Shown piece by piece: positions 1-50,988 of a stretch of DNA of 64,000 nt. The stretch is from the NCBI GenBank assembly GCA_964016885.1, contig OZ024747.1, positions 38,936,001-39,000,000 of the forward strand, read 5' to 3'. The notes beneath the pieces were generated by a model that was given only the letters and a program-made list of their open reading frames with translations, was not told the origin of the DNA and searched no databases. The DNA comes from Eledone cirrhosa (taxonomy: Eukaryota). The translations under genes and the position numbers were made by a program. Each line of letters starts with the position of its first letter. Within the stretch, counting starts at the first letter, position 1.

Positions 1-387
1 ATATACAATACGTACATTTATATGTATAACGCTATGAACCTGAACGAACACATTTTTAATTTAAGCCTGGCCGGCTACCGCTCTTCATGCAAATGAGATT
101 CATCAGCAGAAATATATATGATTCTAGCTTATTATAACCTGAGTGAAGGTATGGAGATATGTGGTGTTGATAACAGCTTATCAGCTAGACACGAAGTATT
201 GCCGATTGATTCCCCCTGATTTTGCTTATGTTAGGCGTATAACGTTTGTCACAATTTTAAAAATATATAAGGAAAGGGCTTCAAATTTTTTCATATACAT
301 TCCGAGCAGTATTCCGTATACAATACATACATTTATATCTATTACCACTATGTGGGAGCCCCTATATATATAGAGCCCACATATTTA

Positions 388-438
<51 letters not shown>

Positions 439-441
<3 letters not shown>

Positions 442-575
442 AAAATATGTTTTGAAACAGTGAGCAGGTTTGAAATTAGAAAATAGAATAGCTTTCAGTG
501 TATTTTTTTACTAAAGAAAATTCAGTTTGATAATGGGGTTTAGAACCCTCAAATAGATGGAAAAATATGAGGATT

Positions 576-579
<4 letters not shown>
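439..579 (-). mobile_element. Truncated copy of the tRNA-like-bearing ~250-bp TA-targeted element
   Basis: Aligns by eye with 19553-19685 (tatgttttgaaacagtgagca...ggggttta.aaccctca...); lies between two (TA)n tracts and stops at the tRNA acceptor stem. Confidence 0.75.
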
Positions 580-4170: not shown

Positions 4171-7100
4171 CAATAACGCATGGGATGAAAAAATGTTTTC
4201 TTTTTCATGGTTATTTTGATTTTTCGCTTAATTTCTTTGCCTTACGATGAAGCAGTCACTTTGTTTATTTTGTTTTTCCTCATAATGAGTTCGATAAAAT
4301 AACAATCAATATCATATGGTCGATTTAAGGGACTATACGTTCTCTGATAATATTTATAATTTGTCTGAAGTAATCTATATACGTATACTTCCTTTACCTC
4401 TTAAAATATCGATGATAAATTTCAAACTCGAATATGGTGAGGTTTGTAGTGGAGAATTCGAAACATCACACACCAAAGTAACAACACGAATAGTAATCAA
4501 TGGTAAAAATACATTTTTACCATTATTCTACTACATTGCCTATTATATATTAGGAATATAAAACAAATCTGTCAAGGCTGTTACATCGAAAGAATATATG
4601 TGGCGTTTACATTTTCTGATTTCTCTATAAACGTTTTTCATTCTTTGAAATATCTACTACATCTACTAAGTTCTCTACCGAGAGAGAACATAAAAATTGT
4701 AATCGATAATACTGAAGGCAGTATTAATTGCTGCATTGGAGTATGTTTTGAGATTTTGAGTAGTCGATTTATACAGTGAAAGCGATGGCTTTACAGCAGA
4801 AATATTCGGAGCTTATATTCATAGTAATGTATACCGTTACAGATTCTGATTTGTTCGTAGAATTCCTGAACTACAGCTCATAGACTGCAGGTTACATCAT
4901 TGTCATGGGCTTGTAGAGCATTGTGAATAATATAATGATAGTGAGAAGGTTAGATATCTTTCTTTAAGGAAAGATAGAACGGTAGATAGTCAGACAGACA
5001 GATAGATCATTAGATTAATTCACACATAGATAAATGGATAAGTAGATAGATATATTTCTTTATTTGGCACAAGGGCCCACAAGAAAACGGAACAATACAA
5101 AGACATGCCGGGTATTTTACATACACTCGTGTAAAAAAATATAAAACAAACAATTATAACAGTCGAAATCCCCAATAAGGGGGAGGCGTCAAAAATGGCT
5201 TGTTTAATACCCCGTAGATAGAACAACCCTCAACACCAGGAGCGTGTTCTGCAAGTGCCCCTTTCTTCCTTTTGCTCTCGTCTTTAACCTACAGGCTTAT
5301 ATCCAGAGAAGGCCCAATCACTCGGGCCATTTTTGTCACATTCACCCACCTTTCAGTAAATTTACTGGGGAGCAGTGCCTCTCTCTCCATTCTGATTCTC
5401 CTTCTAAAGTGGTACCTAAAGAAGGGAATGTGTTGTTGTCCGGAGAGAAAGGCATCTGTCTTCAGTCATCTCAATCTCGTCCACCATATAACCTCTTTCC
5501 CCTTACCCACTATACAGAGGAAAACTGCCTCTCTTTCGTCTTTGAAAGAAGGTGGCAGTTTGATCCTTACTATGGACTCTGCAGTCAACTGGATTTGTCC
5601 CATACGTGACAGCAGTCGTTCTGCGTAGTTCCACAGGTCGGTTATGCCCGGGCAGTGTACAATTGCATGTAAGACAGTTTCAATGTCCTGCCCGCATCTT
5701 AGACACGTCCTCCTAGAAGGATCCTTGCCGGGGCGTCTGTGCCTGTAGATCTTGTCACGACTGGTAGAGCTCCTCGGTAGCACTGCAAGGCCAGAGACCT
5801 CTGGAAGTTGTCCATAGGTCCTGGGCGGAAAGTCCTATCAAACAGACTGGTGAGTTCGTCGTCTTAGACGCCTAGAGTTTCTCCGGGCACGTCGTCGCCC
5901 CTGTGACGTACTAACCCACTATAGAATGTCAAAGTGGAGTCTGCACTGATTGTTGTGCCCGCTTGACAGAGGACTGTGAGCACCTGAGCGCATTCAATGT
6001 TCCAGGCGCCCATATTTTTCGGTCTCTGCTTGACCCAGGATTGCACTCCGTCATCGAGACAAGTTTCGGGAAGGCCTGTCTCACAAACGGTGCCCACACT
6101 GGTTGGGGGTCGGTGAAGAATGCCTGTAGATGCCGTAACCTCAGCGCATGTTTGCACATCATCAGCCACGGCATTCCCAGCCGTCCGTTGGAAGGGTGCT
6201 GACAGCAGGCGCATCTCCTCACCAGTGGGGCTCGCTTCTTCCAAAGGAACTGGAAGAGTATGCGTTCCATCTTGGTGAGGTGCTCACGTGTACAAGGCAC
6301 GACGGTCAAGCGGTAGTAGATGATGGACGCTATGAAAGTGTTGGCCATCTCCGTTCGACCTTTCAAGGATAGTTTGCACTCTGCCCACATCTGGGTGAGC
6401 GCAAATAGTTTGGCCGTGACCTCGTTTCAGTTTTTCTCCACCTGGAGGTCCGTACCGAACCAGACCCCGAGCAATTTCATCGGTCCGTCCGTCCAGCGTC
6501 CGACGGCGCATATCTTTAACTCTGTTTAAGCAGAATTATGAGCCTAAAGTTGCTTAGGTCGTCCCCCTTGTTCTCGTCTTTCCTGATCAGCGTTACTACA
6601 CCCCTGACTGCAGAACTGGGAATTCCCCCGTTCTGCTGCCAGTTGCTGTAGACGGCTTCAAGGACGCCCGAGAACAAGTCCGGCATGTCTATGTTAAACA
6701 CTTATGGTAGACTATCTAGACCGGGTGATTTGCGTTTCCCGCAGCGGCCCAAAGCATCCCGTATCTCAGTGGCTGTGATCGGTCTTTCGCAGAACTCGGT
6801 GTCCATGCTCGAGAGACACGGCAGGCCGTCGAGATATGAACCAAAGTCCATGGTTCCGTTCGACGCACCGCCACTCTGCTCGAACAGTTGCGCAAAGTGC
6901 CGCTGAAAAGCCGCGCACATCCGCTTGGGGTCAAGTCGCACGCGTCCGTTTTGGTATTTCAAAGAGCGAATCGTGGACGTATTACCACTTTTGGCCTCTG
7001 CCACTCGGGCCGCCCAGCTAACAGCTTTTGCTACCTCGTTTACTATAGCACGGGATTTACTTCTGACCACGCAGCCTTCGTGTTTCGCATCGAAGAACTG

Positions 7101-7171
7101 GGCCAGTGACGTTCTCGTTGCTAGCACTCTAGCTACGCTGCCACTCTTAAGCGCCTCCTCTACATTGGCTA

Positions 7172-8060
7172 CTAGTTCCGTTTGTGTTTTTTTTTCTCTA
7201 AGTCTAACTCTCTGCTAAGGTCTATCGACTCTACTCTAATTGCTTTCTTGAGTGAGTACCACCATCTATTGTTGACGATGACTCCCGTCAATTGTTGCTT
7301 AACCAATCTACTTATCCGTTCACTGTAGGCTTTACGTGTCGGTAGCGACACGCTCAGCTTCCAGTATCTGGGTCCTTGTCTATGTATTCTTCTCACGGTT
7401 GACTATGCATTTGTGGACAGCATAACATCTTCTTGTCTCTCTCTCTAACAAAGAACCTGTCTAAATACGATCTAGATGTCCCCCTGCAATTTGTCCACGT
7501 CCACTGTGATGCAGTCGGGAAATCCAGTCGATATCTATCGGCCAGTTGGAATTGGCCGATTAAACTTTTGAGGCTGTTGCACTCAGTTCTACTGGGACAT
7601 GATCCTACATAGTTCCATCGTGCGTCTAGAATACCATTCCAGTCCCCACGAAAAGCAAGGAGCGAGACGTTCCCAGAAAAGACTTTAGACGCTTAAAGAT
7701 GTCTGGCCGTGATTGCCCAGTCGGGACATAAACGGCCACCAGTCTGAAGGCTCCACCTCCAAGACTGTTTACGTCTAGGACTACTAGTCTACCCTCCGGG
7801 TCCAAGTGTACTTGCTGTACTTCGAGGTCCAGGTTTTTCCGAAACATGACAGCCACGCCCCCTTCCCCTTCTGCCTGACAGAGAGATGCGCAGATCTGAA
7901 AGTCATTGAAGATGGGGCTTAGTTGCTGCCTGCTGTGGATCCTGGACTCGGTGATGGCTATCACATCCATACCGTGTGACCTAGGGTCGTTTTAAAATTG
8001 GTCCTGTTTCCAGGGCATCCCTAGGCCACGCACATTCACGCTTCCAACTTGTAGATTAGC
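7172..8060 (-). pseudogene. LINE ORF2 apurinic-like endonuclease domain (broken)
   Basis: ORFs 7626-7970 and 7172-7396 plus the upstream frame IANLQVGSVNVRG; stops and frameshifts present. Confidence 0.85.
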
Positions 8061-8366
8061 TATTTTTGTGGAGAAGAGTTGGCGAAAAAGGTCGAAAATG
8101 TGCACTTATTTTTTCGTTTCCTGGACATCGGGTTGTTCAATCTCCATTTGGGTGCTGGAGGGGTGTTGCGTGGGGTGGGAAAACCGTTTAACAGGACGCG
8201 GTTTATGGGTTTTGACAGGGGTTTCCCACGTCCTGCGAAAATTCAGTTTTTAGTTCGCTATATGTTCCCATGGAAACCCTTATCAGTTTGAGGTGTGGAG
8301 ACGATTCTGCTTTAACGAAAGTTTTACCCCCCATCTCCACCATGGGGTTTTGGGAGTTGACCTCCA

Positions 8367-9664
8367 TCAAATGCTTGTTGCTGGTGTTGATGTATGCGTA
8401 TTGTGTTTGTGTTTTTGTTGTGTTGTTTTAGTTTGTTGTTCGTCCGGGAGTTTTCTTTTTATGTTGGTGATTGTTGTTTTTGTGGCTTTGCGGTGCCTCT
8501 TTTTTGTTTTTTTTTTTGATTTTCGAGGCTGTCCTTCATCTTCACTTGAGGATGAAGAAGTAGCCTCGTCTGGCGAGGATTTGTCATCAGGAGCTTGCGG
8601 TAGGGGTATGTGTCGTGATGGTGTGTTTGTGTGTTTGTGGCAGGGTTGCATGGAATGAGATGGGGTGGGACTGTGTTCTTCGGGGAGTTGTTTGTGTTTT
8701 CCTGCTGTTGTTGGTTGAGTGGCTGTTTGTTTTTGTGCGTTTTCTTGTTTTGTGTTGTTGTTGTTGTGGTAGTGGTGGTGTTGTTTCGATGTTGGTGTTG
8801 GTAACAGTACTTTTAGGGGTTGTTTTTTTTTTAAATGTGTCTGTAAAGGGCAGGAGGCCTTTAGATGCGATGTATTGTTACATTGGAAGCAGTCGAAATG
8901 GTGATGTGGCTGTTGTTGTCGACCAGCACTCTTTCGGGTATTTTGAACATTCTCTCCGGCCTCATTTGCACCAGAATCTCCAAATTTGTACCAGACCACG
9001 TGTGTCTGGTTGATTTCTTGATGGGGAGAATGGTGTCCTGTTCCTCCGTTAAAAAGCCTGCCAATAACAACCAAATATAAATATTTGGTGGTATGTTAGT
9101 AATTCTGATTTCTTGAGTCCTTTTTCCCAGTTATGTAGGGAAAAACGTGTATTTTTTTGAGAACATTAGTGTCACGGAATATTTTTGTGCGAGGGTCTCG
9201 CTTTTGAGGAGGACAGAAATACTCTCATACTGTTTGGCCCTCTGCATAAAGTCTATGTTTGGCAATATCTGCTTCAAGGTTGCTTCAATTTCCTCTTGAC
9301 TGAGTAATGCCGGTTTTCCTGTTTCGTTTGAAACAGTTCGGAAGGTAACTGTCCTTCGAAGTGTTTCAAGACGAATTTCTGGGGGTGAGTTTATTTTAAA
9401 CCCACCGTTTTCTCCGAAAATGATAAACTCATTTGCTTCAGAGAGCATCTGTCTAGCATTGGAGATATCGAGATCCTTGAAATCTTGTTTGTTCATGACT
9501 GTGTGTGCAAAAGTTATTTTTTTGGTGTTGTGGTTGTCGGTTTTTCCGTTTGTAGTTGTGTCAATAGTTTTATTTTCTTTTGTTTTTTCTGTTGTTTTTG
9601 GTGTCTGTTGTACACTGTGTGGTTCAATTTTGTTTTTATTACATACTTCACTTTCGTGAAACAA
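8367..9664 (-). pseudogene. LINE ORF1 (gag-like, interrupted)
   Basis: ORFs 9131-9664, 8861-9070 and 8367-9074 with CFQCNNTSHLKASC zinc knuckle and a basic/Ser-rich tail, directly upstream of the APE. Confidence 0.75.
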
Positions 9665-10239
9665 AACCTTGTTGCCATTATTGCTCCAATAGTGACGCCG
9701 ATACGTGCAGAATTTGAGGCAACGTTAAAATACATTTTATTTGTGACTGTTTCTGTAAAAGTCATTTTTTAATTTTGTTGTTGTGGCTGTTATGGTGTCC
9801 GTTTTTCTGTTTGTAGTTGTGTCAATTGTTATATTTTCTGTTGTTTTTGGTGTCTGTTGTACACTGTGTGGTTCAATTTTGTTTTTATTGTATACTTCAC
9901 TTTCGTGAAACAAAACGTTATTGTCAGCTACATTGATACAGGCAGAGCTGGTATCAACGTTAAAGTCTATTTCCTTCTTTTTTTCCTTCCTCAACGTTCG
10001 CTAGCGTTCCTTGTACGCTAGCGAACGTAGATGGCAAAATATTTTTAAAAAAGGACAGTTTTATTTAAATTAAATTTTCGCCTCTGTGGGGGCGAAAAGT
10101 GAGATTGCCACCCAGCTGACAATTCAGCCCGGGGGTTAATCTACAAAACAATGGGTTATTTTTTGCAAGAATTTCTGTTTTTTATAAATAAATTGACATA
10201 AACTTACCAGCTAAATTGTGTACATCCTCCTATAGATAG

Positions 10240-11974
10240 ATATATTTCTTTTATTTGCCACTAGGGCATCAAAAGTGGGACAAGTACAAAGGGGGGAGTT
10301 TACACAAAAAGGCGTCCTCAATAAGGAGGAGGCAATAACAAAATATAAAAATAAAATAAGATATAACAAAAAATAAAATTTTTAACAAAATCCTCAATAG
10401 AGAGGAGGCGCCTTGGGGGTCGCACACACCCCCGAAAAAAGTGTGCAACCCTTCTCCTCAGGAGCACAGAGAAGGGGTGCTCCCTTGGTCTTTCATCTTC
10501 CTCACCTATAGTCTGATGTAGAGTGAAGGCCCATTCACACGGGCCATTCTCGCCACTTTCACCCATCTTTCATAGAAACGGCTGGGGTGCAGCACCTCTC
10601 TCTCCATCCTGATCCTTCTTCCGAAATGATATCGGAAGAAACGGACCAGTTGTTGGCCAGAGAGAAAGGTGCCCGACCTCAGTCCTTTCAGACGCGTCCA
10701 CCATACAACCTCTTTCGCCATGGCTATTACGCACAGAAACACCGCCTCTGCTTCATCTTTGAAGGGGGGAGGCGGCTTGATCATTACAATAGACTCGGTG
10801 GTCAACCGGATCGGTCCCACCCTTGACAGCAGTTGTTCGACATAACCCCACAGATCGGCTACGCCCGAGCAGTGTACTAATGCGTGTGCAACGGTTTCCT
10901 CGTCGCACACGCATCTGGGACAGATCTTTTTGGCGGGGTCCCTACCCGGGCGCCCGTGTCTGTAGAGCCTTTCTCGAACGGGTAAAGCCCCTCGGTAGCA
11001 CTGCCAGGCCAGGGACTTCTGGAAGTTGTCCATAGGTCCCGGGCTGAATGTCCTACCGAACAGGCTGGCCAGTTCGTCCTCCTCCATGTCTAGGGCTTCT
11101 CCGAGGGCGTCGTCGCACCTGCTGCGTACCAGCCCTCTATAGAATGTTGCGGTGGAGTCTCCACTGATAACCGGATCCGCCTGCCAGAGGGCGGTGAGCG
11201 CCTGGGCACACTCAGTGTGCCAGGCGCCCAGTTTTCTCGGTCTTTGCTTGACCCAGGATTGCAGCTCGGTGAGTGAGACGAGTCTGGGAAAGGTTCGTCT
11301 CACAAACGGGGCCCACACCGGTTGTCCGGTGAGGAATACGTAGAGGTGCCGTAGCCTTAATGCGTGTTTACGCATCATTAGCCACGGCATCCCCAGCCCT
11401 CCTTTCGAAGGGTGTTGACAGCAGATGGATCTCCTCACCATAGGAGCCCACCTCTTCCAAAGGAATTGGAAGAGCGCGCGCTCCATCTTGGTGAGGGTTT
11501 CCCTTGGGCAGGGCACTACGGTCAGGCGGTAGTAGATGACGGACGCTATGTAGGTGTTCGCCACCTCCGCCCGACCTTTCAGGGATAGTTTGCAACTGGC
11601 CCACTTCTGGGTCAGTGCAAACACCCTGTTCGTAACCTCCGCCCAGTTTTTCTCCACCTGGAGGTCCGGTCCGAACCAGACCCCGAGCAACTTCACCGGG
11701 CCCTCCGTCCAGCGTCCGACGACGCTATCGGAGGGCATCGGTCTGCCCCTCCACGTGCCGAGTTGCAAACCGATCGACTTGTCCCGGTTCAGCTTAGCCC
11801 CTGTGAACTTTTCGTCCTCCTCCAGTAAGGTGCCGACCGCCTCGATTTCGGAGGCCGTCGACACCATTACTGTCACGTCATCGGCGAGGCCGACACCGCT
11901 TTCCGCAATCCCGGTTCCAAAGGGATGCCCTGCAACAACTCCAACTTCCGCAGTAGTGGCTCGAGAGTCAACAC

Positions 11975-11975
<1 letters not shown>
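10240..11975 (-). mobile_element. 5'-truncated L1/Tx1-clade LINE, related subfamily
   Basis: 456-aa ORF 10506-11876 homologous to 5400-6510 (KLLGVWFG, GGLGMP, CPRC...HALVHC); starts within RT (LEPLLRKL); YADD codons carry a 1-nt deletion (gcc t-c gcc gat gac) near 11885. Confidence 0.9.
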
Positions 11976-12071
<96 letters not shown>

Positions 12072-12097
12072 ATAGATAGATAGATAGACAGACAGAC
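11976..12097. repeat. (GATA)n microsatellite abutting the LINE 5' junction
   Basis: Seen directly. Confidence 0.95.
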
Positions 12098-13535
12098 ATA
12101 CGGTGAGTGGGTGAGATAGAGAATATTTGAAAGTATATATATTTGTATTATTTATATGTTTATAAATTCTTTGGGGGATACTGATCTGTTTTAACTAAAC
12201 ACCAGTTCACTATATCTACGTATGTTATTTATACGTTAAGAACGAGAAAATTGATTTGAATTAAAGATAAAAATATTGGCGGCGACCAGAAATTGTTTAC
12301 AATAACCTTATTCCGTTATCCTAATGTGCTATAAGTCAAATTCTTACCCCTGAATAGTGTATAATGTACAACTTCGACATAATTAATCCTTAATATTTTA
12401 TTCAAATAAGAAATATCATTGCTCAGAACATCTATTGAGTTTGTGTTGTTGTATGGATCAGGTAAATAGACATTAACACAATAAACTAGATGGTGCTGAC
12501 ATAAAGTGCTTGGTTTGTACAAAACATAATCTGGATTCAACTTCTTACAAATGAAATTTCTACCAACGTGCTCAAGGTAACGACTACAATTGCTTAATGA
12601 CGGTTACAATTTGTAGGACATTGCTGGAGACGTAAGCAGAACTTTATACACAAGCTAGTATTGTGGGAACCAACTCACGAGATACGCAGTACAGAAAGAC
12701 ATACTCGAGCCATCATCGGTCAACTCTCAGTAGGAAACAGTTGCCAGGAACAATGGAAGATTGTGAATTGTGGAGCGACTTTCCCAGGAATGTTCGACAA
12801 TAGTCGCAATGATTATGATGATTTTCTTCATTAAAATATAGTCTTTAAATGGCAGTGACGTCTCGCGCTGAATAACATGCATGTTCGTTTTGTTTTAACA
12901 ATATGAAAACACTGAAACAAACTAAGTAAATTAAAGATTAAGAACATTTCCACTTCAGATTTGAAACCGAATCTAAGAAGCGCGAATTTGCTTTAGTATC
13001 AGTTCACCTGAGTTGGAAGAAAGTTTGAGATACATAATGAAATCTAACATTAATTAGTTCTGGTTTTTCTTCTAATGAGTTTTATCCGAATATAACGAGA
13101 GATTAAACAAAATATTAATATCTGGTCACTGATTTTAATAAAGAGACAATTCTCCTTTCATCTTTATCTTTCTGATTTGTCAAATTGTTACATCTTTCTC
13201 CGAAGTTAATAAGTAATGAGATATCACTATAGAATGATAGAATATGTATAGTATATCATATAGAAAGTGCACATAGATTAATATAATACGTTTTGAAATT
13301 ACCCAAGAACGATTTCAATATGTTATGTATAAATAGGTTTCTACTTGTTATGTTTATTGAACGATGTTCAGAGAGGAATTAATGTTGACAACGATTAAAG
13401 TACATATAATTGCTATTATCTTTCATTTGAAATCATCATAATTTATTTTCTGTTTGCGAGTGCACACATATTTTAATAGAGAGCAAAATGGATGGAAATG
13501 GCCAGGAGCACCACACTCTTCCGCCCCATTCATCG

Positions 13536-18211: not shown

Positions 18212-19680
18212 TGTATTTACTGGTCTTCCAGATTAAATTGTAATCTATAGCTTTTTGTCCTTTGACGTAATAATGAAATCGAATTCTCCTACGTGGGATT
18301 GGAACTATAATCCACTAAAAAATGTCGAACGCTATGCATGGAATATTATATTTAGAATTTTTAGCAGAAGCTACGACCAGAGAAAAATATTACACTTCAA
18401 ATAATCCATTTAGAAGACTATATACCACAACTATAGTCTACACGTACGTAACGTAACGATACCCAATTGTTAACATGAATGTATATATAGTTAAACGTTT
18501 ACAGTTTTTACAAATCGAGATGTTTTGATTTCATGTGGAAGACAACATTTTTAATTGATTTTACGAAAGAAATGTGCTTCTTTCTCAAAACAAAATATTA
18601 CTTAGAAAATTGTAGTCGTTTCCGTAAAAGTACATTAATTGTTGTATAAATATAGATTTCCACAGTATTTACGTACCCTTTCCTCAAATAAAGAAGTTTA
18701 GAAGTACAAAAAACTTGAAATACCACACGATCAGCTGTGTTTGTTTGCCCTTAAAAGCAATTCATGTTAAATACACTGGGCATAGTATTATGAAAAATAC
18801 GAAGGTGTGTCGACCATATTTAATCCCCTTACGATAACTGAAGCTTTATGCTTAGAAAAAATCATTAACTATACATTGTAAACTATAGATAGCTTTTCTG
18901 TAAACCTAATACGGGGTCATTTTATATATATTTTTAATACATCGTCAATGTTATTCAGTCTAGTATGAACAGCCCTACTTATAATTTCTCTTTCTCTACA
19001 ATTGTTATGTATAATTCCGTGTAATAATCCATTTTTGTAATTATCAATCAAGCATGATAGTAATATATTCAGCATAATAAAAATGATTATTTTCTCCACC
19101 ACGTTAGCAAACATTGATTAATGAGCATGATTATATGAAGCACTGTTGCACATATAATGCCAGTTCCTTAAACCATTGTATATATGCATGGAAAATGTTA
19201 GCCTTGTGATGGAACATAGACGTTGGCCAAGTAAAATAATATTTGAAAAATTAATATACTCTCTCGCTCTCTTCCATTCTCCTTCTCTGTCTCCTCTCCC
19301 TCTCTCTATGTCTCTCTTTCAATCTACTCTCTCACAACCACTATCTCTTTCTTTCTATCCTCCTCTCTCTCTCTCTGTTTATAAGGTATACAGAAAGTCT
19401 CATATCTCGGGAACCAGTGGTCTGATTTACGCTAAACCTTTTTATTCCATTTGTATCTCCATTTCAGGAGCAACTCTCTTTCAAAGCATTTCCCCATATT
19501 ACTTTACAGACAAGCAAGCAATCACAGACTTTTAGTAATATATATATATATATCAAGTAAGTATGTTTTGAAACAGTGAGCAAGTTTGAAATAGAAGCTT
19601 TCACCGTATGTTTTGACTAAAGAAATGTTAGCCTGATAGTGGGGTTTATAACCCTCAGAGAAATGGAAAAAGATGTGTAT

Positions 19681-19751
19681 TGACGTACATGGGAGTCGAA
19701 ACCACATCTTTAGTTATCCAGACCACTGTGCTACCATTACACCAACACATC
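19681..19751 (-). tRNA. tRNA-like cloverleaf (element-borne, not a standard tRNA gene)
   Basis: Reverse complement of 20009-20079 with 4 substitutions. Confidence 0.6.
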
Positions 19752-20008
19752 ACCCATCTCCTTCCATTCAAATTAGAAGCTACATTCTTAGCAAGTATGA
19801 TGACAAGTAAGTATGTTTTGAAACAGTGAGCAAGTTTGGAATTAGAAATAGAAGCTTTCCCCGTATTTTTTAACTAAAGAAAGTTTAGCCTGATAGTGGG
19901 GTTTATAACCCTCATAGAAATGGAACTTGCTCACTGTTTCAAAACATACTTACTTGTCATCATACTTGCTGAGAATGTAGCTTCTAATTTGAATGGAAGG
20001 AGATGTCG

Positions 20009-20079
20009 GATGTGTTGGTGTAATGGTAGCACAGTGGTCTGGATAACCAAAGATGGGGGTTCGACTCCCATATACGTCA
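20009..20079 (+). tRNA. 71-nt tRNA-like cloverleaf, nominal anticodon GGA, atypical loop
   Basis: Acceptor GATGTGT/ATACGTC+A; D arm GTGT-AATGGTA-GCAC; anticodon arm TGGT-CTGGATA-ACCA; T loop TTCGACT; A and B boxes; TTTT ~9 nt downstream. Confidence 0.65.
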
Positions 20080-20878
20080 ATACTCATCTTTTCCCATTTC
20101 TCTGAGGGTTATAAACCCCTCTATCAGGCTAAAATTTCTTTAGTCAAAACATACGGTGAAAGTTCTATTTCTAATATATATATATAGATAGATAGATTCA
20201 TATTGTCTTTCATTTTGCTTTCTAAAGAATAATACTATGATATATCTACATGAATAGTGAAATGTATGGGAAAAGGTAATATTAATATATTCTTCAAATT
20301 ACTGTTTCATAGAAAGTAGATAAAAAGAATACTGCGGAGTTTAAATATAACAAGAAGTTCAATTTAGAAAGGTTCACTAAGGCGCAGGGGCTCATATGCA
20401 TACACATACACATATATTCTTATAGGCTTTAGGTCATTGTTTTCGGGGACATCAAGCTAATAAATTTTGACTTTCAATTTCAGTATTTAATATTTGTCAT
20501 GTGGATATATCTATATTCAATTCAAAGCAACATACAACCATTCTATTTTGGCTTTTGTCAGAACAATAATAAAACAAATGCCACCAAATAAGAAACATAT
20601 TTGCCTATACACACGATAGATTTGTCAAGAAAATACAAAATAGTTATGATTACTTGAAATAATATAGGATGACACATATGCAACGCTAATTGATTGGAAG
20701 CATAATGAATTGTACAACTAAAGTAATATAATATTGCTCGTCGTTAATAATATACGATAATACACAAATGGTAATAATACCAAATTATAATAACATGATT
20801 ACTATAAAGAACAAAATTAATATATCTATCAAATTTCTAAAGTTAAATTTAATATTTAAGAGAGAGAGATAGAGAGAG

Positions 20879-30789: not shown

Positions 30790-31715
30790 AAAAAAATATC
30801 GCGCTAATAGCAAAACTATCTGGCTATTTGCCTCCTTCTCACTCGATGTTAAAACTAATGTAGGAAGAAAATTTAGTCCTCTTAGATAGACACTTTCCCA
30901 TAGGTTACAAAGACCGCTCCGTCTTTAACAGACACAGTATGAAACTAGGATACTCTTGTGCTAAGAATAGGAAGGCCCACATCACCAACGGCCCTAAGAG
31001 AAGCACCGCACCAGGGTGCTCTTGCCGAAAGCCTGTAGCTTGTCCCCTTCAACAACAATGCAACACACAAATCCTATGTAGGTATGGCGGAGGGCGGGTT
31101 AAGAAACGCTTCCTGAACCATCATTCGACCTTTAGATACCTAGACAAACGATCGTCCACGAAACTCGTGAGCCAGGTATGGTACCTCAAAAGCTCCGGCG
31201 TTGACTACTGCATCGAATGGAAAGCTATCACTAAGTCCAAGCCATAGACAATGGGCAATCCGTCCGGTGGACTGTGCATTGAAAAAAGTATTAATATCCT
31301 AAGAAGTTTACACAATAACGATTACCTAAATTCAAGGAATGAGCTTTTTCCACGTTATCCACACGTCTGGAAACACCGTTTACATAATCACAAAGCTCCA
31401 GATTGAATAACATCAACATTCTAATACTCTCATCAACTCGAATAATTTATTCTGGACATTCGAAATTATCTCCTTACACCGTTCTACCGTGAGATTACAT
31501 CGCCTAGGAGAAGTGACCGTTTCTGCGTATACGTATTTATATGGTTGTTTTTCCTTTTCCTTACAACTCCACTCAGACGGAGCTGAAGATCCGCTTAAGG
31601 TAAAACATGTTTTCTCGATATGGTAGACTAACTGTTGTGGAACTACTTCTACCAAACTCGTCCCATGGTCTGAGTGCTTTACTACAACGGATATAACTTT
31701 CCGTATTCTACTAGA
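30790..31715 (+). mobile_element. 5'-truncated degenerate PLE (linker, GIY-YIG, 3' end)
   Basis: KLGYSC, CSCRKPVACPL, KKRFLNHHSTFR, IEWKAI, LNSRNEL motifs; decayed HHR at 31579-31615 (CTGAAGA...AAAAC). Confidence 0.85.
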
Positions 31716-31879: not shown

Positions 31880-34020
31880 TAATAATAATAAATTTGAAGA
31901 CTAAAATCCAAAGAGGGCTCGATAAGGATAAATATATATCAAATATATAAGAACCGTAGAGTAAATATTTATTAAAATAACAGATTAAAGTTTAAGAAAA
32001 GAATCGCTGCTTTCACCCTTAACGGGATCTTCTGAAACTGACAAAGTCAATTTGTAAACGCAGAAGTGAATATTTCAAAAAACGTTGCAATCGGAGGAAA
32101 ACAGGAAGACGATACTTTGGTTTGTGGAAACGTTCCCTGGCAAAGAACGGGAAAAAACGAATATAAACGTCATTATTTGGAGCGGTGAAAAACAATTACA
32201 CGCAAAGACAGAACCACGTTTATGGTATAAAAGAAGTCGTAGACTAATATTATCTTAGGTGGTTCATAGAGACGTTCTCTGGCAATGAACGGAAAAACGA
32301 AGATAATACGTCATATGTGGATCGTGGAGAACAATTGCACGCAAAGACAAAACCACGTAAATGGTATAACTGAAGTCGTAGACTAACATTCTAACTAGGA
32401 AACCGAATGATTCTCCGCTTCAGAGTTAAGAATAAAGTAAATAAAATTCAGAGGTAATTGAAATTGAATAAATACATACACGCATCCCAAAACGTACATA
32501 CACAAGCATACGCGAAAACACTCGCCATAGGTATACAAATACACGCACATATACATATGTGTGTATGTGTGTGCGTCTATACAAATAATTAAATAAACGT
32601 ATATAAATAAATAAATACGTATATAACAAGCGAACACACATACATACATGTAAATACACAAATGTTCGGAGACTACGACAACCAAAACACGATGTACACA
32701 TATACACACACCCTACATACGTACGAACCCGCATACTCGCACAGACGCAAAACTCACGTATACACATAACCAAAAGCATATGTACCAGAATATATAAAAT
32801 ATACGCCATAACATATACAATCAAATATACGTACGAGAAGGTATACGTAAACATACAGGTATTATATACTTACCTATGCAAATAAGTAATGGTATTAACA
32901 TATCATATACTTAGCTACCACATCAAGACGTAAAATATCCGCGTATAGATCGTACGATCCGTTAGGGTATAATGTGGGGCTGTAATACAGGAAAGTGTTG
33001 TGCAATTTATGTTTACAAGCCGAAATTGCCTCAGATGTTTTGTTTAAGATGTGGTCTGTGGCTTAGAGTATTTCCAGGGTCTCAGCGGCGAAGAGGTCAC
33101 ATGGTCTTTTATTTCCGTTATACAATCTTGCCCTAGCTAGGATATCCCAGTGTAAATTATATTGGGTGTGGTTGTCTTTTAGACTCCAGATATAAGCTGA
33201 AAGTGACCTCATATTCTTTCTTAGAGGGTAACGAAAAGAATGGGTATGCATGTAAAGACGCTGCTTGAACCTATTTGCGGGTAACCCTATGTAGGCCCTA
33301 CTGGACGTGGCTGTTTCAACCATACATTTGTAGACAATGTTACTAGAGAGGCATTTCCCGGATAGGGGGCAATCAACCCGATTCCTACAATTACAGTTAG
33401 TACTAACTACAGGGTTGCACGTGTTCCTACGACTAGGTAGTTTAGTTTAATTTGAAGCTGTGATGTTATGTGCAAGGTTAGGAGTCATAGAGTAAGAAAT
33501 TCTAATACTATTTCTATAAAAAATTTACTATATTTATGTGTAGGGGGAAATTGCTTCGTAATAACGGATAGAAAGATCTTAGCTAATTGTGTGGCCACCT
33601 CCATATTATATGGTGGGTTATACAATATAATGCTTCGGGATCTATTTCTTCTAGGTATATTCTCGTACTCTGTATATGCTACCTTATCGACAAATCCACT
33701 CCGAGCAAGAGCTTCATTGTAGTATGTGGAATAGTCGTTGAAAATATGCTCGTTAGTAGATAGACGGGAAAGCCTCAACGAAACGTTTCTTACCAGGTTC
33801 TTGGTTATGCTGGCAGGATGGTTAGAATGCTTACTTATGTAATTAAGCGTATCATTCGGCTTTCTATACGGATAATACAAGCCATTCGATAAATTGAGGG
33901 TAACATCGAGGTAATTAACGACCGAAAGGTTGGCCTCAACCTGTATAGAGGGGTTGAAGCCTTTAAAGAAGGCTGTGAGTTCTTTTCTGAATCTGTCGCA
34001 AGCACGAGGGTATAACATAA
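31880..34020 (-). mobile_element. 5'-truncated PLE: RT thumb, GIY-YIG and long 3' region
   Basis: ORFs 33485-34018 (VNYLDVTL, YRKPN, SNHP, YNPPY) and 33063-33323 (AYIG, FKQRLYMH); LNKTSEAISACKHK; 3' region with an RY-rich tract and a ~143-bp duplication (32125-32395). Confidence 0.8.
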
Positions 34021-34059
34021 CAGGAGGCTGGACTGGTGTACTTCCTTGAAAGATTTATT

Positions 34060-35332: not shown

Positions 35333-35371
<39 letters not shown>

Positions 35372-35483
35372 TAGAATATTCGAAAATATTCTGTATGTTT
35401 ATAATAAACATTTTGAAGACCTAATCGCTATAGAATAGAATACGTCACGTATTACAATTAGATTCTCGATAAAAGCAAGGGAA

Positions 35484-35526
35484 GTAATCTACGCGTTTCA
35501 TTCTTGTTAGAAATCTTCAGGACTAC
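35484..35526 (-). ncRNA. Minimal type I HHR (also 35794-35836, 36104-36146, 36414-36456)
   Basis: Reverse complement of 36563-36605. Confidence 0.85.
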
Positions 35527-36562
35527 ATATCCAGTGCTTTTATCGAGAATGACACAGCTAGAGACTTATAGAATACTTAGCTGTGTACAGGAACTGGTTT
35601 GAAAGAGCGGTTGCCGGTCCGGCAGAAATTAGAAATTGGAATAAATGCTCTGAAATAGCGATATATATGTGAATATAGACATAGAATATTCGAAAATATT
35701 CTGTATGTTTATAATAAACATTTTGAAGACCTAATCGCTATAGAATAGAATACGTCACGTATTACAATTAGATTCTCGATAAAAGCAAGGGAAGTAATCT
35801 ACGCGTTTCATTCTTGTTAGAAATCTTCAGGACTACATATCCAGTGCTTTTATCGAGAATGACACAGCTAGAGACTTATAGAATACTTAGCTGTGTACAG
35901 GAACTGGTTTGAAAGAGCGGTTGCCGGTCCGGCAGAAATTAGAAATTGGAATAAATGCTCTGAAATAGCGATATATATGTGAATATAGACATAGAATATT
36001 CGAAAATATTCTGTATGTTTATAATAAACATTTTGAAGACCTAATCGCTATAGAATAGAATACGTCACGTATTACAATTAGATTCTCGATAAAAGCAAGG
36101 GAAGTAATCTACGCGTTTCATTCTTGTTAGAAATCTTCAGGACTACATATCCAGTGCTTTTATCGAGAATGACACAGCTAGAGACTTATAGAATACTTAG
36201 CTGTGTACAGGAACTGGTTTGAAAGAGCGGTTGCCGGTCCGGCAGAAATTAGAAATTGGAATAAATGCTCTGAAATAGCGATATATATGTGAATATAGAC
36301 ATAGAATATTCGAAAATATTCTGTATGTTTATAATAAACATTTTGAAGACCTAATCGCTATAGAATAGAATACGTCACGTATTACAATTAGATTCTCGAT
36401 AAAAGCAAGGGAAGTAATCTACGCGTTTCATTCTTGTTAGAAATCTTCAGGACTACATATCCAGTGCTTTTATCGAGAATGACACAGCTAGAGACTTATA
36501 GAATACTTAGCTGTGTACTATAAGTCTCTAGCTGTGTCATTCTCGATAAAAGCACTGGATAT

Positions 36563-36605
36563 GTAGTCCTGAAGATTTCTAACAAGAATGAAACGCGTAG
36601 ATTAC
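36563..36605 (+). ncRNA. Minimal type I HHR (also 36873-36915, 37183-37225)
   Basis: gtagtc-CTGAAGA-tttctaacaagaat-GAAAC-gc-GTA-gattac; palindromic stem III acgcgt; enclosed by a 16-bp outer stem attctcgataaaagca/tgcttttatcgagaat. Confidence 0.87.
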
Positions 36606-37378
36606 TTCCCTTGCTTTTATCGAGAATCTAATTGTAATACGTGACGTATTCTATTCTATAGCGATTAGGTCTTCAAAATGTTTATTATAAACATACAGAA
36701 TATTTTCGAATATTCTATGTCTATATTCACATATATATCGCTAATTCAGAGCATTTATTCCAATTTCTAATTTCTGCCGGACCGGCAACCGCTCTTTCAA
36801 ACCAGTTCCTGTACACAGCTAAGTATTCTATAAGTCTCTAGCTGTGTCATTCTCGATAAAAGCACTGGATATGTAGTCCTGAAGATTTCTAACAAGAATG
36901 AAACGCGTAGATTACTTCCCTTGCTTTTATCGAGAATCTAATTGTAATACGTGACGTATTCTATTCTATAGCGATTAGGTCTTCAAAATGTTTATTATAA
37001 ACATACAGAATATTTTCGAATATTCTATGTCTATATTCACATATATATCGCTATTTCAGAGCATTTATTCCAATTTCTAATTTCTGCCGGACCGGCAACC
37101 GCTCTTTCAAACCAGTTCCTGTACACAGCTAAGTATTCTATAAGTCTCTAGCTGTGTCATTCTCGATAAAAGCACTGGATATGTAGTCCTGAAGATTTCT
37201 AACAAGAATGAAACGCGTAGATTACTTCCCTTGCTTTTATCGAGAATCTAATTGTAATACGTGACGTATTCTATTCTATAGCGATTAGGTCTTCAAAATG
37301 TTTATTATAAACATACAGAATATTTTCGAATATTCTATGTCTATATTCACATATATATCGCTATTTCAGAGCATTTAT

Positions 37379-37716
<338 letters not shown>

Positions 37717-39562: not shown

Positions 39563-39699
39563 TATAGCTCTGATTATTTAATTTATTAATTCTTCATTGA
39601 GCCACAAAGTGACCCGTTACAAAACACATATATATTTATGACATTATATATATATATATGTAAACCTTTATATGTATAGATAAATATATATATATATAG

Positions 39700-39943
39700 A
39701 GAGAGGAAAAAAGATGAAATTGAAAATGCAACTGGAGTGTTATTTTAAAAAAAATATAGATATTTATTTGGTTCCTTTACCGGTTTCGCATTTCTTCTGC
39801 TTTTCAAAAGTAGAGTTGAGATGGAGGGTCTTTGGTTTTTCTCACATCAGATGTGAGAAAAATCACAGACCCTTCATCACAACTCTACTTTTGAAAAGCA
39901 GAAGAAATGCGAAACCGGTAAAGGAACCAAATAAATATCTATA
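39700..39943. mobile_element. pLTR fold-back (39755-39943) with U3:A8-variant HHR (39888-39923 on +)
   Basis: ctt-TTGAAAA-gca gaagaaa tgc-GAAAC-cg-GTA-aag; a further copy of the family lies at 50715-50925. Confidence 0.65.
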
Positions 39944-42905
39944 CCTCCTCAATGAAATCCATAAGGACCTCCCTTACCTCAACGGTGGTTTGTACCGCGA
40001 TGATGCACTTCTACTTATAGAATATAAAAAAATTTATATAGAAAGAACTAGAAAACAACTGCATAAGACATTCAAAAACTTTAACCTTAGTATCACCATG
40101 GACAAAAACACTAAAAATGTTAACTTCCTAGACGCCACACTATACCTAGACTCAAAAATATATACACCTTTTCATGAGCCTAATGAGAAACTTATTTACG
40201 TAGATACCAAGTCTAATCACCCTAGATCAATATTAAACTCTATCTCTAAGGGAGTGTCCAATTGAATCTCGAGTCTGTCCTATGACGCAAACATATTTAG
40301 CAAAAACTCACAATATTACAATCAAGCATTAGCTAGCTCCGGCCATAATATAGAAATTGAGTTCCTACCTAAGAAAACACATAGCTACAACATCATCTCG
40401 CACAACATGGCCATGAGGAAATCTAATAATAGGAATAGCAACCACAAGTACACCAAAGCGGAGGGTGCCACCGGAAGTAACCATTACCATGGAAACTACT
40501 GTGGGGCCTTAGGAGGAAGCAACACACCAAACACTAAAAGCAAAAATAGAAGAAGAAATAATACATTTTTCAACCCTCCTTTCAACCTAAATGTCTCCAC
40601 CAACATACCTAGGGCTTTCTTCTCACTGCTAGATAAAACCTTCCCTCTAGGACACAAGTACCACAACCTCTTAAACAAAAACACCATTAACATCTCATAC
40701 TCTACGACGCCTAACTTAGCATACCACATAGCTAGCAGCAATAATAGTAAAATTAGTTCTTACTTCCAACAAACAAAATCACAACGAGATGCAAACCCTC
40801 TAAATACCACTGTAGCAAGCAACCATAGCAACGGCAGTAACAATAGAAATAACACTAGTATAAGTAATAACACCAGGGTTGTCAACCCGAACACCCAAAA
40901 TCCTATATCTACCACTCAGACTTCCGCACTGCATTATAAGCAGCGGACTAACGCACAGGATAATTGTAACTGCAGAGCTAATAGAACCTGCCCTTTAGAT
41001 AAAAAATGCCTAACCAAGGATGTCATATACTCATGCACCGTCACGACTAATAACTCTTCAGAAACCTATGTAGGCTCCACTTCTAACTGCTTCAAAATCA
41101 GATACAATTCGCACATCCACTCGTTCAAAAAGCACAGCCTAGCAAACTCCACCTCACTCTCTAGCTACATACACTATCTAAAATCTAAAAATAAACCATA
41201 CACACTCAAATGGGAAGTGATAGGCAGCGCGACCTCGTACAAACCACCTAATAAATTTTGTAACCTCTGTATACTAGAGACACACAATATTATCTTCTCC
41301 AACCGTAACCTACTTAACAAAAAGTCTGAGGTGTTTGCAACTTGCCAGCACCGCCTCAGACATTCCTTCCAAAACTTTAAGCCCAATATATAGCAATGCC
41401 GGACTGGAACCTAACACCACATCTAGCATCAAACACCAGGGACACACCTTATACTACATACCCAATACTAACTGATCCATTATAACACAAACAACGACAT
41501 CCCTCTGGAACCCTTCGCAGGGAGAATACCCATTTATACCTCTACGTCATGTGTGACAACATCCACCCACTTGAACGGCACTACACCGCTCTAAGGGTAA
41601 TTTGAGCATGAATTGATCGGTTGGATAGTGTTGTGCAGAGGAAACACCTTCCTTAGACAGTTGAAAAATGATTTAATCGAGTAACGCTGTTGACCAGTAG
41701 GACCGGGCTGCTGAGCGCAGTGAGTGAATGCATTGCAACTGCCGTGCGGGTTGTACGTATATGGATGATCTGACGGTCGGAGAGGGGTCGCGAGGACTGC
41801 GGATTGATCTTTGGCCGGCCTGGGGATGATTATCTTTCGACATCCAATGTAGCAAGCGATGACCCAGATCTTACCAGAGATCATTGGGTCCTGAAGCAAT
41901 CCTGCAATCACCGCGCCTGGTCATATGAGCAGAGATCATTAATTTAGAATCCTCGCTCATCATCTATAATTTCCATTTGTGGCACCTTACGATGGGTTAA
42001 TACACCATAATAATATGATCACCTTCAGCATAACTTAATTAAACTACTCTATAGTTAATACACTTTATGCTTTAAACATCTCTCTTGGAAGATGCGCATC
42101 ACCATAGAATTTAGGGTCTATATTGGGACACATTTTAATGGCTAGATATAGAAACCCCAGAGTTACCTCCCCGCATACATTAACTCCCCTTAGCAACACA
42201 CACACTTCCGGGCGGTATTCAATGGCGTTTCTCGAAACGTAACAACCTCCTGTATCGAACTAAAGAACACCAGACTACGATCTCTAACTGGATTGTCGTG
42301 GATTATGTGAAGGGCATATAATCGAAAAATACACTCCCCTGACCATGAAAATTCCGAAGTACATGAAATACTTGACATCCCTGCGCTGTGCATCTCCAAT
42401 ACTTATAACATTTTTAATGCTTGCACTATCTTTAATGCTTATAATATTTCTCCACACACAGACTATACCAATCATATAAACAATTTGCCACCAGATCTAC
42501 CAACCTAACACTCTTGTTTACCTACCTAAGTGCCTCTACCACACATATCTCTCTGCCACACTATATAAACAAGACGCACATGCGTGCCACACATATAACA
42601 TTTGCATTATATAACCGCTTATCTTCATGTTGTATTTTAACCCATATTTTTGATTTTTGATTGTACCTATTAATATAAATGTAATCTCGAAGTGTGTACT
42701 GCCACTCTAAATTCTGTAATGAATGTTGACCCACAATGTTTGAATATGTATCAATGTTTGAATATGTATTGGTATGTCTCTCGGCTGAAAAGGAGGTCAT
42801 ATAACTGTTCATGCATTAATAAATTGCTCCGAAGAATCCAAACCTCTGTTTGGAGGAAACAGCTGTAAGCACAATAATGTTTTGAACAGTTCTTTGATTC
42901 TTATA

Positions 42906-50247: not shown

Positions 50248-50440
50248 ATATACATATTTATATGGATATATAGGGAAAATATGGATATATAGGGAAAAAA
50301 GGTGAAATCGCAAATGCATATATATAGTATTAAGGATACTATTTATGGTTATGTATATAATAAAACCTTTTGGAGGAAACAATTGTAAGCAAATAAATGA
50401 TTTAAACTGAACTTTGATTATTGTAATCTTTCTCTCTCTG

Positions 50441-50678
<238 letters not shown>

Positions 50679-50923
50679 ATATGTATATGGATATATATAT
50701 ATATACATATGGATATATAGGGAAAAAAGGTGAAATCGAAAATACAACTGGAGTTTTTTATATTTATTTGGTTCCTTTCCCGGTTTCGCAGTTCTTGTGC
50801 TTTTCAAAAGTAGAATTTAGATGGAGGGTTTGTGGTTTGCATTTTAGATTTGATCTTTTTTCCTTACACTTTCCCTCGTGTAGCACATCTGTTTTTTTTT
50901 ATTTTGTAAAAATACCTCATCTT

Positions 50924-50988
<65 letters not shown>

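Follow-up and report, generated by a model that had tools for sequence, protein, structure and literature searches.

In a 64,000-nucleotide window of the Eledone cirrhosa genome (contig OZ024747.1, positions 38,936,001 to 39,000,000), we analysed a repeat inserted at positions 19,553-20,174 of the window. The repeat is best read as a non-coding element with a transfer RNA (tRNA)-like head, which would be transcribed by RNA polymerase III (Pol III), mobilised by a Penelope-like element (PLE), and mostly truncated at a stop imposed by the tRNA fold. We give this full model a probability of about 0.6; mobilisation by a PLE, taken alone, is very probable. The initial annotation of the window had proposed a PLE-mobilised element that either releases monomers through RNase P/Z cleavage of a tRNA mimic or disperses a Pol III tRNA-like gene.

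The insert between the two (TA)n tracts is 621 bases long and consists of two arms joined head-to-head, 94-95% complementary to each other. The TA target, the approximately 1.5 tandem units and the arm layout given initially all hold, with (TA)n on both sides. The 71-nt cloverleaf at 20009-20079 was recognized as a tRNA by both ARAGORN and Rfam (48.7 bits; gathering score 29), and its 7-bp acceptor stem, its A and B boxes and a T4 run nine bases past the cloverleaf are all present in the sequence. It is not, as had been thought, the single centre of the element. A second cloverleaf lies at 19681-19751 on the minus strand, so that there is one tRNA per unit, and the ~50 bp upstream of the tRNA, taken for retained sequence, are the end of the previous unit and not a captured flank. 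The internal position of the tRNA is correct for the window copy, but many copies begin just before the tRNA or within the T arm. The tRNA sense of both arms points outward, as does the hammerhead strand of a 310-bp repeat family at 35351-37384, and on account of this shared polarity we took the tRNA strand as the RNA strand. Unit positions are numbered from the first cloverleaf base. The fragment noted at 439-579 is a member of the same family, 78-84% identical.

Family counts were made in a genome of 3.0 Gb. Exact matches numbered 4,098 for the tail motif and 766 for a 27-mer of the tRNA, with 0 for both reversed controls. Applying the exact-match rate found in an independent sample (38 of 86 tail units), and removing a satellite described below, we arrive at a rough estimate of 8,000-9,000 units, distributed over about 5,000 insertions. 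The repeat is also present in three public runs of one sample, which has no bearing on expression. The 34 full monomers yielded four subfamily consensuses, which are 259, 260, 272 and 290 bp long, the one of 272 bp resting on 2 loci; across the family, unit length is 258-290 bp. Subfamily B is the youngest, with 3.9% divergence between copies versus 7.8% for the pooled A types. Arm ends were mapped in a position-ordered sample, the first 100 tail-motif matches on contig C1. These correspond to 78 loci, of which 8 were duplicates, leaving 70 loci with 75 insertions and 124 arms; 10 arms with atypical 3' ends were set aside, leaving 114.

The 3' ends of these 114 arms fall at two internal sites, a short one (S, ~150-172; 51 arms) and a long one (L, ~200-216; 63 arms), ~35-45 nt apart. 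Head-to-head fold-backs account for 45 of the 75 insertions, and among the 39 with two canonical ends, an L end is paired with an S end in 36. TA adjoins 103 of the 114 canonical 3' ends, and the absence of a tail derived from a long interspersed element (LINE), remarked on initially, was confirmed in that the 3' ends are internal S/L sites adjoining TA. Multi-unit arms are also found in the family. In PMC8557442, PLEs are described as forming partial tandems and inverted 5'-truncated copies with a 30-40 bp tail, with (TA)n targets for the Hydra and Naiad groups. According to PMC11167929, the protein of an Anolis PLE cuts and extends both strands in vitro, and its two internal start sites on the RNA delimit the tail. 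Given this both-strand extension and the two start sites, two complementary DNAs (cDNAs) primed from both cut ends fit the fold-backs better than a single snap-back. The neighbouring hammerhead family likewise has two fixed 3' ends. At one locus (L012), an arm of the element passes, across 4 nt of microhomology, into a Hydra-type PLE, of which the 3' part of the coding sequence and the untranslated region are present; the chimera forms one TA-to-TA block, and its PLE part has the Hydra motifs CxCx5C, CxxC and CxH. Mobilisation by a PLE, as initially proposed, is thus well supported by tail, target, head-to-head layout and this chimera. As a shared recognition motif for reverse transcriptase (RT), we considered TTTCTAATTTC, found in this family as well as in the hammerhead family and in the PLE at L012; it was rejected, being present also in an unrelated repeat resembling a DNA transposon.

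Concerning a ribozyme, no hammerhead core (C[CT]GANGA) was found on either strand, at any spacing, in the circular consensus of subfamilies A and B. The absence noted in the single copy thus extends to the consensus. Candidates with one mismatch lack the helices, and a hidden hammerhead around GAAAGCU was dismissed as there is no upstream core. Rfam gave no ribozyme match at E <= 10, a weak negative because at its gathering score Rfam also missed the hammerhead of the neighbouring family; the motif test therefore carries the weight here. Rfam matches to microRNAs reflect only the long fold-back. Since the hammerhead core is lacking, the element is, judged by its sequence, one that inserts like a retrozyme but is not a retrozyme.

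The consensus cloverleaf has 20 of 21 canonical stem pairs, including three G-U pairs in the acceptor stem. It is enclosed in subfamilies A and B by a predicted helix of 17-18 bp between positions -17..0 and 74..91, weaker in the 272-bp subfamily. The predicted duplex energy of this helix is -23 kcal/mol in the consensus (z -3.6), and in the window copy the helix is weakened by substitutions (z -2.2). ARAGORN labels the tRNA Ser(GGA). Serine tRNAs have a long variable arm and a purine at position 37; here the variable loop is 4 nt, position 37 is U and the anticodon drifts among copies, and serine identity was therefore rejected. On the other hand, the D arm is common with that of the host tRNA-Gln genes (54 pattern matches) except for one missing D-loop base, and one host Gln(TTG) gene type has a similar leader and trailer with nearly equal spacing and T6-7 where the element has T5. 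Ungapped, the element and the Gln(TTG) gene are identical at 43 of 71 positions. Among the 21 stem pairs, 11 are unchanged, 8 have changed on both sides and still pair, 1 has changed on one side and still pairs, and 1 is broken, a retention that random shuffling rarely matches (P 0.016). These features suggest that the cloverleaf likely derives from tRNA-Gln. A prokaryotic source was addressed only by a narrow test, 0 exact pattern matches in genome_contigs. Host tRNA-Gln genes also form a tandem cluster at C1:168.21-168.28 Mb (L221-L239), alternating with variants of anticodon CTA. Elsewhere, an arm of the element is fused at the B box to a common tRNA-derived short interspersed element (SINE) (L035/L109, about 1337; L255, just past the tRNA head). 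This SINE has a stretch of 12-13 bases identical to positions -3..+9 of the element, which may hint at where the new acceptor strand came from.

Among the four subfamily consensuses, only 1 of 57 columns in the core (positions 8-63) is variable, versus 30 of 115 in body and flanks, a contrast somewhat inflated by counting indel columns singly. The anticodon arm is also invariant. Individual copies behave differently. In 100 copies we found 0 compensatory double changes, and single stem changes broke a pair in 100 cases and kept it in 62; stems mutate no slower than loops, and single copies decay neutrally. The whole tRNA is kept at only 15 of 70 loci. In subfamily B, mismatches U1-C70 and G2-G69 remove acceptor pairs 1-70 and 2-69, and stem pairing is re-registered. 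Covariation, proposed at the outset as a check, is therefore absent among copies, while conservation is strong between subfamilies and against tRNA-Gln. The dispersal of a functional tRNA-like gene finds no support in copies whose stems mutate as loops do, and a role as Pol III promoter in the master lineages fits best. A separate array at C15:17,822,547-17,822,910 consists of tandem pieces of ~58 bp that comprise only the D-to-T-arm part of the cloverleaf.

The 5' ends are concentrated in the T arm. Among the 78 arms that reach position 65, 54 end at 55-65 and 49 at 60-65, where 2.4 would be expected from the rate over 66-125; for single arms alone, 12 of 22 end at 60-65 against 0.5 expected. 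An arm ending at 55-65 is present in 43 of the 75 insertions, and the stop is seen in both the A and B subfamilies. The peak coincides with a CATG-centred palindrome and AT microhomology. Nevertheless, no comparable peak was seen at 14 further positions where the AT microhomology is at least as long, at other palindromes (two 6-mers included) or at hairpins of similar energy, which indicates that microhomology alone is not the cause. In four single arms the end falls at 55-58, within the T loop close to the canonical A58 and at a place without AT microhomology. These ends suggest that copying may stop at a folded or methylated T loop and that the ends may then be trimmed.

A second group of 5' ends lies near the tRNA head. 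Of the 81 arms passing the tRNA, 22 (16 loci) end at -9..+3, where 6.4 would be expected, and the remainder run into the previous unit. As many as 13 of the 22 end at -3 or further upstream, outside the range of RNase P products. A pyrimidine precedes both G-3 and G+1, and Pol III starts tend to follow a pyrimidine.

The tandem units were compared by rare alleles. Sharing is 9-11% between units of one arm, 10-14% between the two arms of an insertion and 0.6-0.7% between loci, which fits the re-copying of one monomer and is no proof of a circle. An excess of the 27-mer on one strand (256 vs 510) led to a satellite on contig C28 that extends from 19,440,624 to 19.71-19.72 Mb (L263-L273), a span of ~270 kb with ~930 head-to-tail units of the 290-bp subfamily B. 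All units lie on one strand, are ~95% identical to the dispersed consensus and carry private alleles; all 11 sampled 10-kb pieces inside the array were filled by the repeat, from the array start onward. The possibility that this satellite is the master of the dispersed copies was rejected: C67T is present in 363 of 372 array units versus 3 of 59 dispersed B copies, and the further near-fixed alleles G119A and G124T are also rare in the latter. By these private alleles, the satellite is to be regarded as a product and not the master.

Taken together, the model we favour would operate as follows. The A and B boxes of a unit within a tandem copy would drive Pol III transcription with starts between about -3 and +1, and some transcripts would continue past the T5 run to include the body and the following unit. 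A Penelope enzyme acting in trans, likely of Hydra type, would cut (TA)n, and both ends would prime inside the RNA, at the S and L sites whose use is visible in the DNA. Most cDNAs end at unit positions 55-65, possibly because the RNA is folded as a tRNA, perhaps with 1-methyladenosine at position 58 (m1A58) in the T loop; the end would then be cut back to whichever AT/CATG microhomology is closest. Head-to-head joining of two cDNAs gives the fold-back. Multi-unit arms such as those in the window would come from a smaller number of longer templates, whether read-through multimers or circles, and only these could renew master copies. Both peaks of 5' ends are missing from second units, where the T-arm stop is nearly absent (2/16) and the start cluster is absent (0/9). 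This suggests that templates come in two classes, short RNAs initiated at the head and long ones in the form of multimers or circles. The window copy would then be of the long class.

Several points weigh against this model. The T5 run, ten bases past the cloverleaf, could terminate the bulk of Pol III transcription ahead of the sites where RT starts. The missing peaks in second units oblige the model to postulate a second template class. Among read-through copies, no misincorporation was seen at A58 (unit position 56), which is A in 89 of 92. Within the T-arm peak, 16 of the 35 ends at 62 owe their placement to the correction of an alignment artefact at the CATG palindrome, and the two arms of a pair do not count as independent. 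The start cluster was compiled from three samples chosen in different ways, with arms of <40 nt dropped; in the unbiased sample alone it amounts to 4 of 18 (P 0.046). Of its 22 ends, the 9 at -1..+3 could equally well stem from RNase P or from a Pol III start. Parentage from tRNA-Gln was judged against three genuine host isotypes only (Gln, Thr, Ala). As for the mobilising partner, the L012 chimera is a single case that could reflect a later deletion, and no sequence homology to the ends of autonomous PLEs was found in a comparison with the PLEs of the window.

An explanation that we consider unlikely, which keeps the Penelope mobilisation, is that the cloverleaf replaces the hammerhead. RNase P, together with tRNase Z or a T-loop nuclease, would cut multimers, a host ligase may circularise the monomers, and reverse transcription would proceed in a rolling manner. 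Six 5' ends at 0/+1, two arms that end at 71-72 and one at ~+1, units that are precise circular permutations, rare alleles common to tandem units as if one monomer had been re-copied, arrays of 3-10 units and an anticodon arm kept invariant when a promoter would not need it all favour such processing. The upstream position of most near-start ends does not, and few ends lie at the RNase Z site, with 3 of 88 arms beginning at 72. Subfamily B, youngest and common, breaks the top two acceptor pairs, which makes RNase P/Z processing less fitting; the leader is predicted to pair with the trailer in an 18-bp helix, few loci retain a full tRNA, and arms are short, unlike the ~10-unit arms with scattered junctions of the hammerhead family. 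Monomer release by RNase P/Z, one of the two routes first envisaged, is therefore weakly supported at best. It should be noted that the scattered 5' junctions of the hammerhead family include none at the predicted cut (14 loci); a cleavage site thus need not leave a 5'-end peak, and 5'-end mapping is weakened as a test for RNase P. A ribozyme-free retrozyme, in which host enzymes would cut, monomers would be ligated, Penelope would copy circles and tRNA modification would set most 5' ends, seems quite improbable.

We also regard as distinctly unlikely that the tRNA is an inert or structural passenger of RNA polymerase II read-through RNA, with the T-arm CATG hairpin as stall and join point and the fold kept for the Penelope protein. 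The neutral decay of copies, the coincidence of the stop with a palindrome and AT microhomology, and the invariant T5 agree with this, as do reports that hammerhead-free PLEs proliferate well (PMC8557442) and that hammerhead mutants still insert in vitro (PMC11167929). It leaves unexplained the cluster at -9..+3, the near-invariant core beside a variable body, and the lack of a stop at equally stable hairpins and longer palindromes. Could the peak at 55-65 be a true RNA 5' end, produced by T-loop cleavage of the tRNA-fragment type or by a self-cleaving motif, rather than a stop of RT? The boundary is sharp, and the ends at 55-58 lack microhomology. However, such cleavage predicts an equal rate in second units, where 2 of 16 were seen, and the lack of a ribozyme match, weak as it is, also speaks against it; we hold this very improbable. 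An ordinary LINE-mobilised SINE, a real tRNA-Ser gene and a one-off hairpin artefact can practically be dismissed, although a tRNA head with A and B boxes and the Ser(GGA) label might invite the first two. A LINE-mobilised SINE does not account for the lack of a poly(A) or LINE tail, the two internal 3' end sites or the head-to-head layout, and a tRNA-Ser gene is contradicted by U37, the lack of a long variable arm and the anticodon drift. Thousands of copies dispersed on many contigs, besides the presence of the repeat in the three public runs, are inconsistent with an artefact.

Features of the element and of PLE remnants in the window. Strand is that of the tRNA or reading frame; A-box and B-box calls follow the general consensus motifs.
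Position	Strand	Feature	Basis
439..579	-	Single-arm copy of another subfamily, 5'-truncated at ~unit 62-67, L-site end, in (TA)n	
19538..19553	.	Left (TA)n target tract	sequence
19554..19925	-	Left arm, ~1.5 units, 372 nt, outward 3' end at long (L) start site	
19554..19586	-	33-bp tail between short (S) and long (L) 3' ends, Penelope tail signature	
19681..19751	-	Second tRNA-like cloverleaf	Rfam RF00005, 38 bits
19924..19925	.	Head-to-head arm junction, 2-nt AA microhomology	overlap of arm alignments
19924..20174	+	Right arm, one permuted unit, 251 nt, ends at short (S) start site	
19991..20008	+	5' strand of predicted 17-18 bp helix enclosing the tRNA; partner strand 20082-20099	
20009..20079	+	tRNA-like cloverleaf, likely tRNA-Gln-derived; anticodon GGA, U37, short variable loop	ARAGORN, Rfam
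20016..20026	+	A-box-like motif (D arm)	sequence; D arm = host tRNA-Gln minus one D-loop base
20058..20068	+	B-box motif (T arm)	sequence
20063..20073	+	Unit positions 55-65, T loop to T-stem 3' strand; usual 5'-truncation zone, read through here	
20089..20092	+	T4 run, candidate leaky Pol III terminator, also in flanking helix	T5 in all subfamily consensuses
20174..20189	.	Right (TA)n target tract	sequence
30864-31247	+	Broken PLE frame	Hydra-type RWK, DKT, CxCx5C motifs (four frames together)
33063-34054	-	Broken PLE frame	as above
39684-41393	+	Broken PLE frame	as above
43382-45608	-	Broken PLE frame	as above

Other repeats surround the element. The 310-bp family at 35351-37384 is a young hammerhead retrozyme-like family with 19,727 exact motif matches, and forms head-to-head arrays with up to ~10 units per arm and scattered 5' junctions. 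A hammerhead-like variant (CCGAAGA...GAAA) lies near 42829 among the broken PLE frames of the window. Another fold-back repeat family flanked by (TA)n and without a tRNA was seen by eye at 39698-39940 and 50418-50986. Broken frames resembling non-long terminal repeat (non-LTR) retrotransposons, which we take to be of L1/Tx1 type, occupy 5466-9724 and 10506-12194 on the minus strand. Outside the window, a second dispersed tRNA-bearing repeat of ~2 kb has a palindromic end in TA (L242, L244-L252). Its internal cloverleaf at ~1501-1574 scores 53-72 bits with an anticodon that varies among copies, and the repeat looks like a non-autonomous DNA transposon.

As far as the sources cited here describe them, short Penelope passengers carry hammerheads, and SINEs normally have LINE partners. 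If our model is true, a Pol III transcript can be taken up by Penelope enzymes, and short passengers can do without the hammerhead. With two start sites, a strong stop and a start cluster within 260 bases, the family would offer a compact substrate for Penelope biochemistry, and the T-arm stop may be a genomic record of template fold or modification. The 270-kb array represents a retro-insertion turned satellite DNA. For automatic annotation, thousands of such cloverleaves would inflate tRNA-Ser counts.

tRNA-derived SINEs (SINE2) start with a tRNA head that bears the A and B boxes, continue with a body and finish in a tail that is either poly(A) or derived from a LINE. The present family has such a head and a body; some of its arms begin near the head, and the others that pass the tRNA run into the previous unit. 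It differs in having no LINE-derived or poly(A) tail and no discernible target-site duplication, in its Penelope-type ends, in its permuted tandem units, and in a whole cloverleaf kept with new stem sequences. In the literature searched, no account was found of a PLE passenger that has a tRNA head and no hammerhead; the family may stand under a different name in Repbase, Dfam, subscription papers or the supplements, notably those of PMC8557442. The Hydra PLEs and non-autonomous PLE derivatives such as MRC1, as described in PMC8557442, have in common with it the (TA)n target, the partial tandems, the inverted 5'-truncated copy and a tail of 30-40 bp, which PMC11167929 traces to two start sites of RT inside the RNA. 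Our family has no open reading frame and no hammerhead, which Hydra elements in that account always have, and instead has a tRNA head; in the limited comparison with the PLEs of the window, it shows no 3' homology to autonomous elements.

Metazoan non-LTR retrozymes, as described in PMC7229834 and bioRxiv 10.64898/2026.07.22.740005, are non-coding tandem units of ~300 bp, GC-poor, non-autonomous and PLE-linked, all of which applies here; the 310-bp hammerhead family of the window is such an element with the same layout. Judged against those descriptions, the family lacks the defining hammerhead core and carries a cloverleaf instead, and its arms are mostly sub-monomer with a fixed 5' truncation point. 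The Schistosoma repeats Sm-alpha and Sj-alpha (PMC2770079) are high-copy SINE-like repeats from tRNA-Gln(TTG), called satellite DNA in a title cited there. The likeness is by description, and Sm-alpha has a hammerhead besides its tRNA part where our family has none. Within these sources, the closest precedents for the element appear to be the non-LTR retrozymes and the hammerhead-bearing, tRNA-Gln-derived Sm-alpha.

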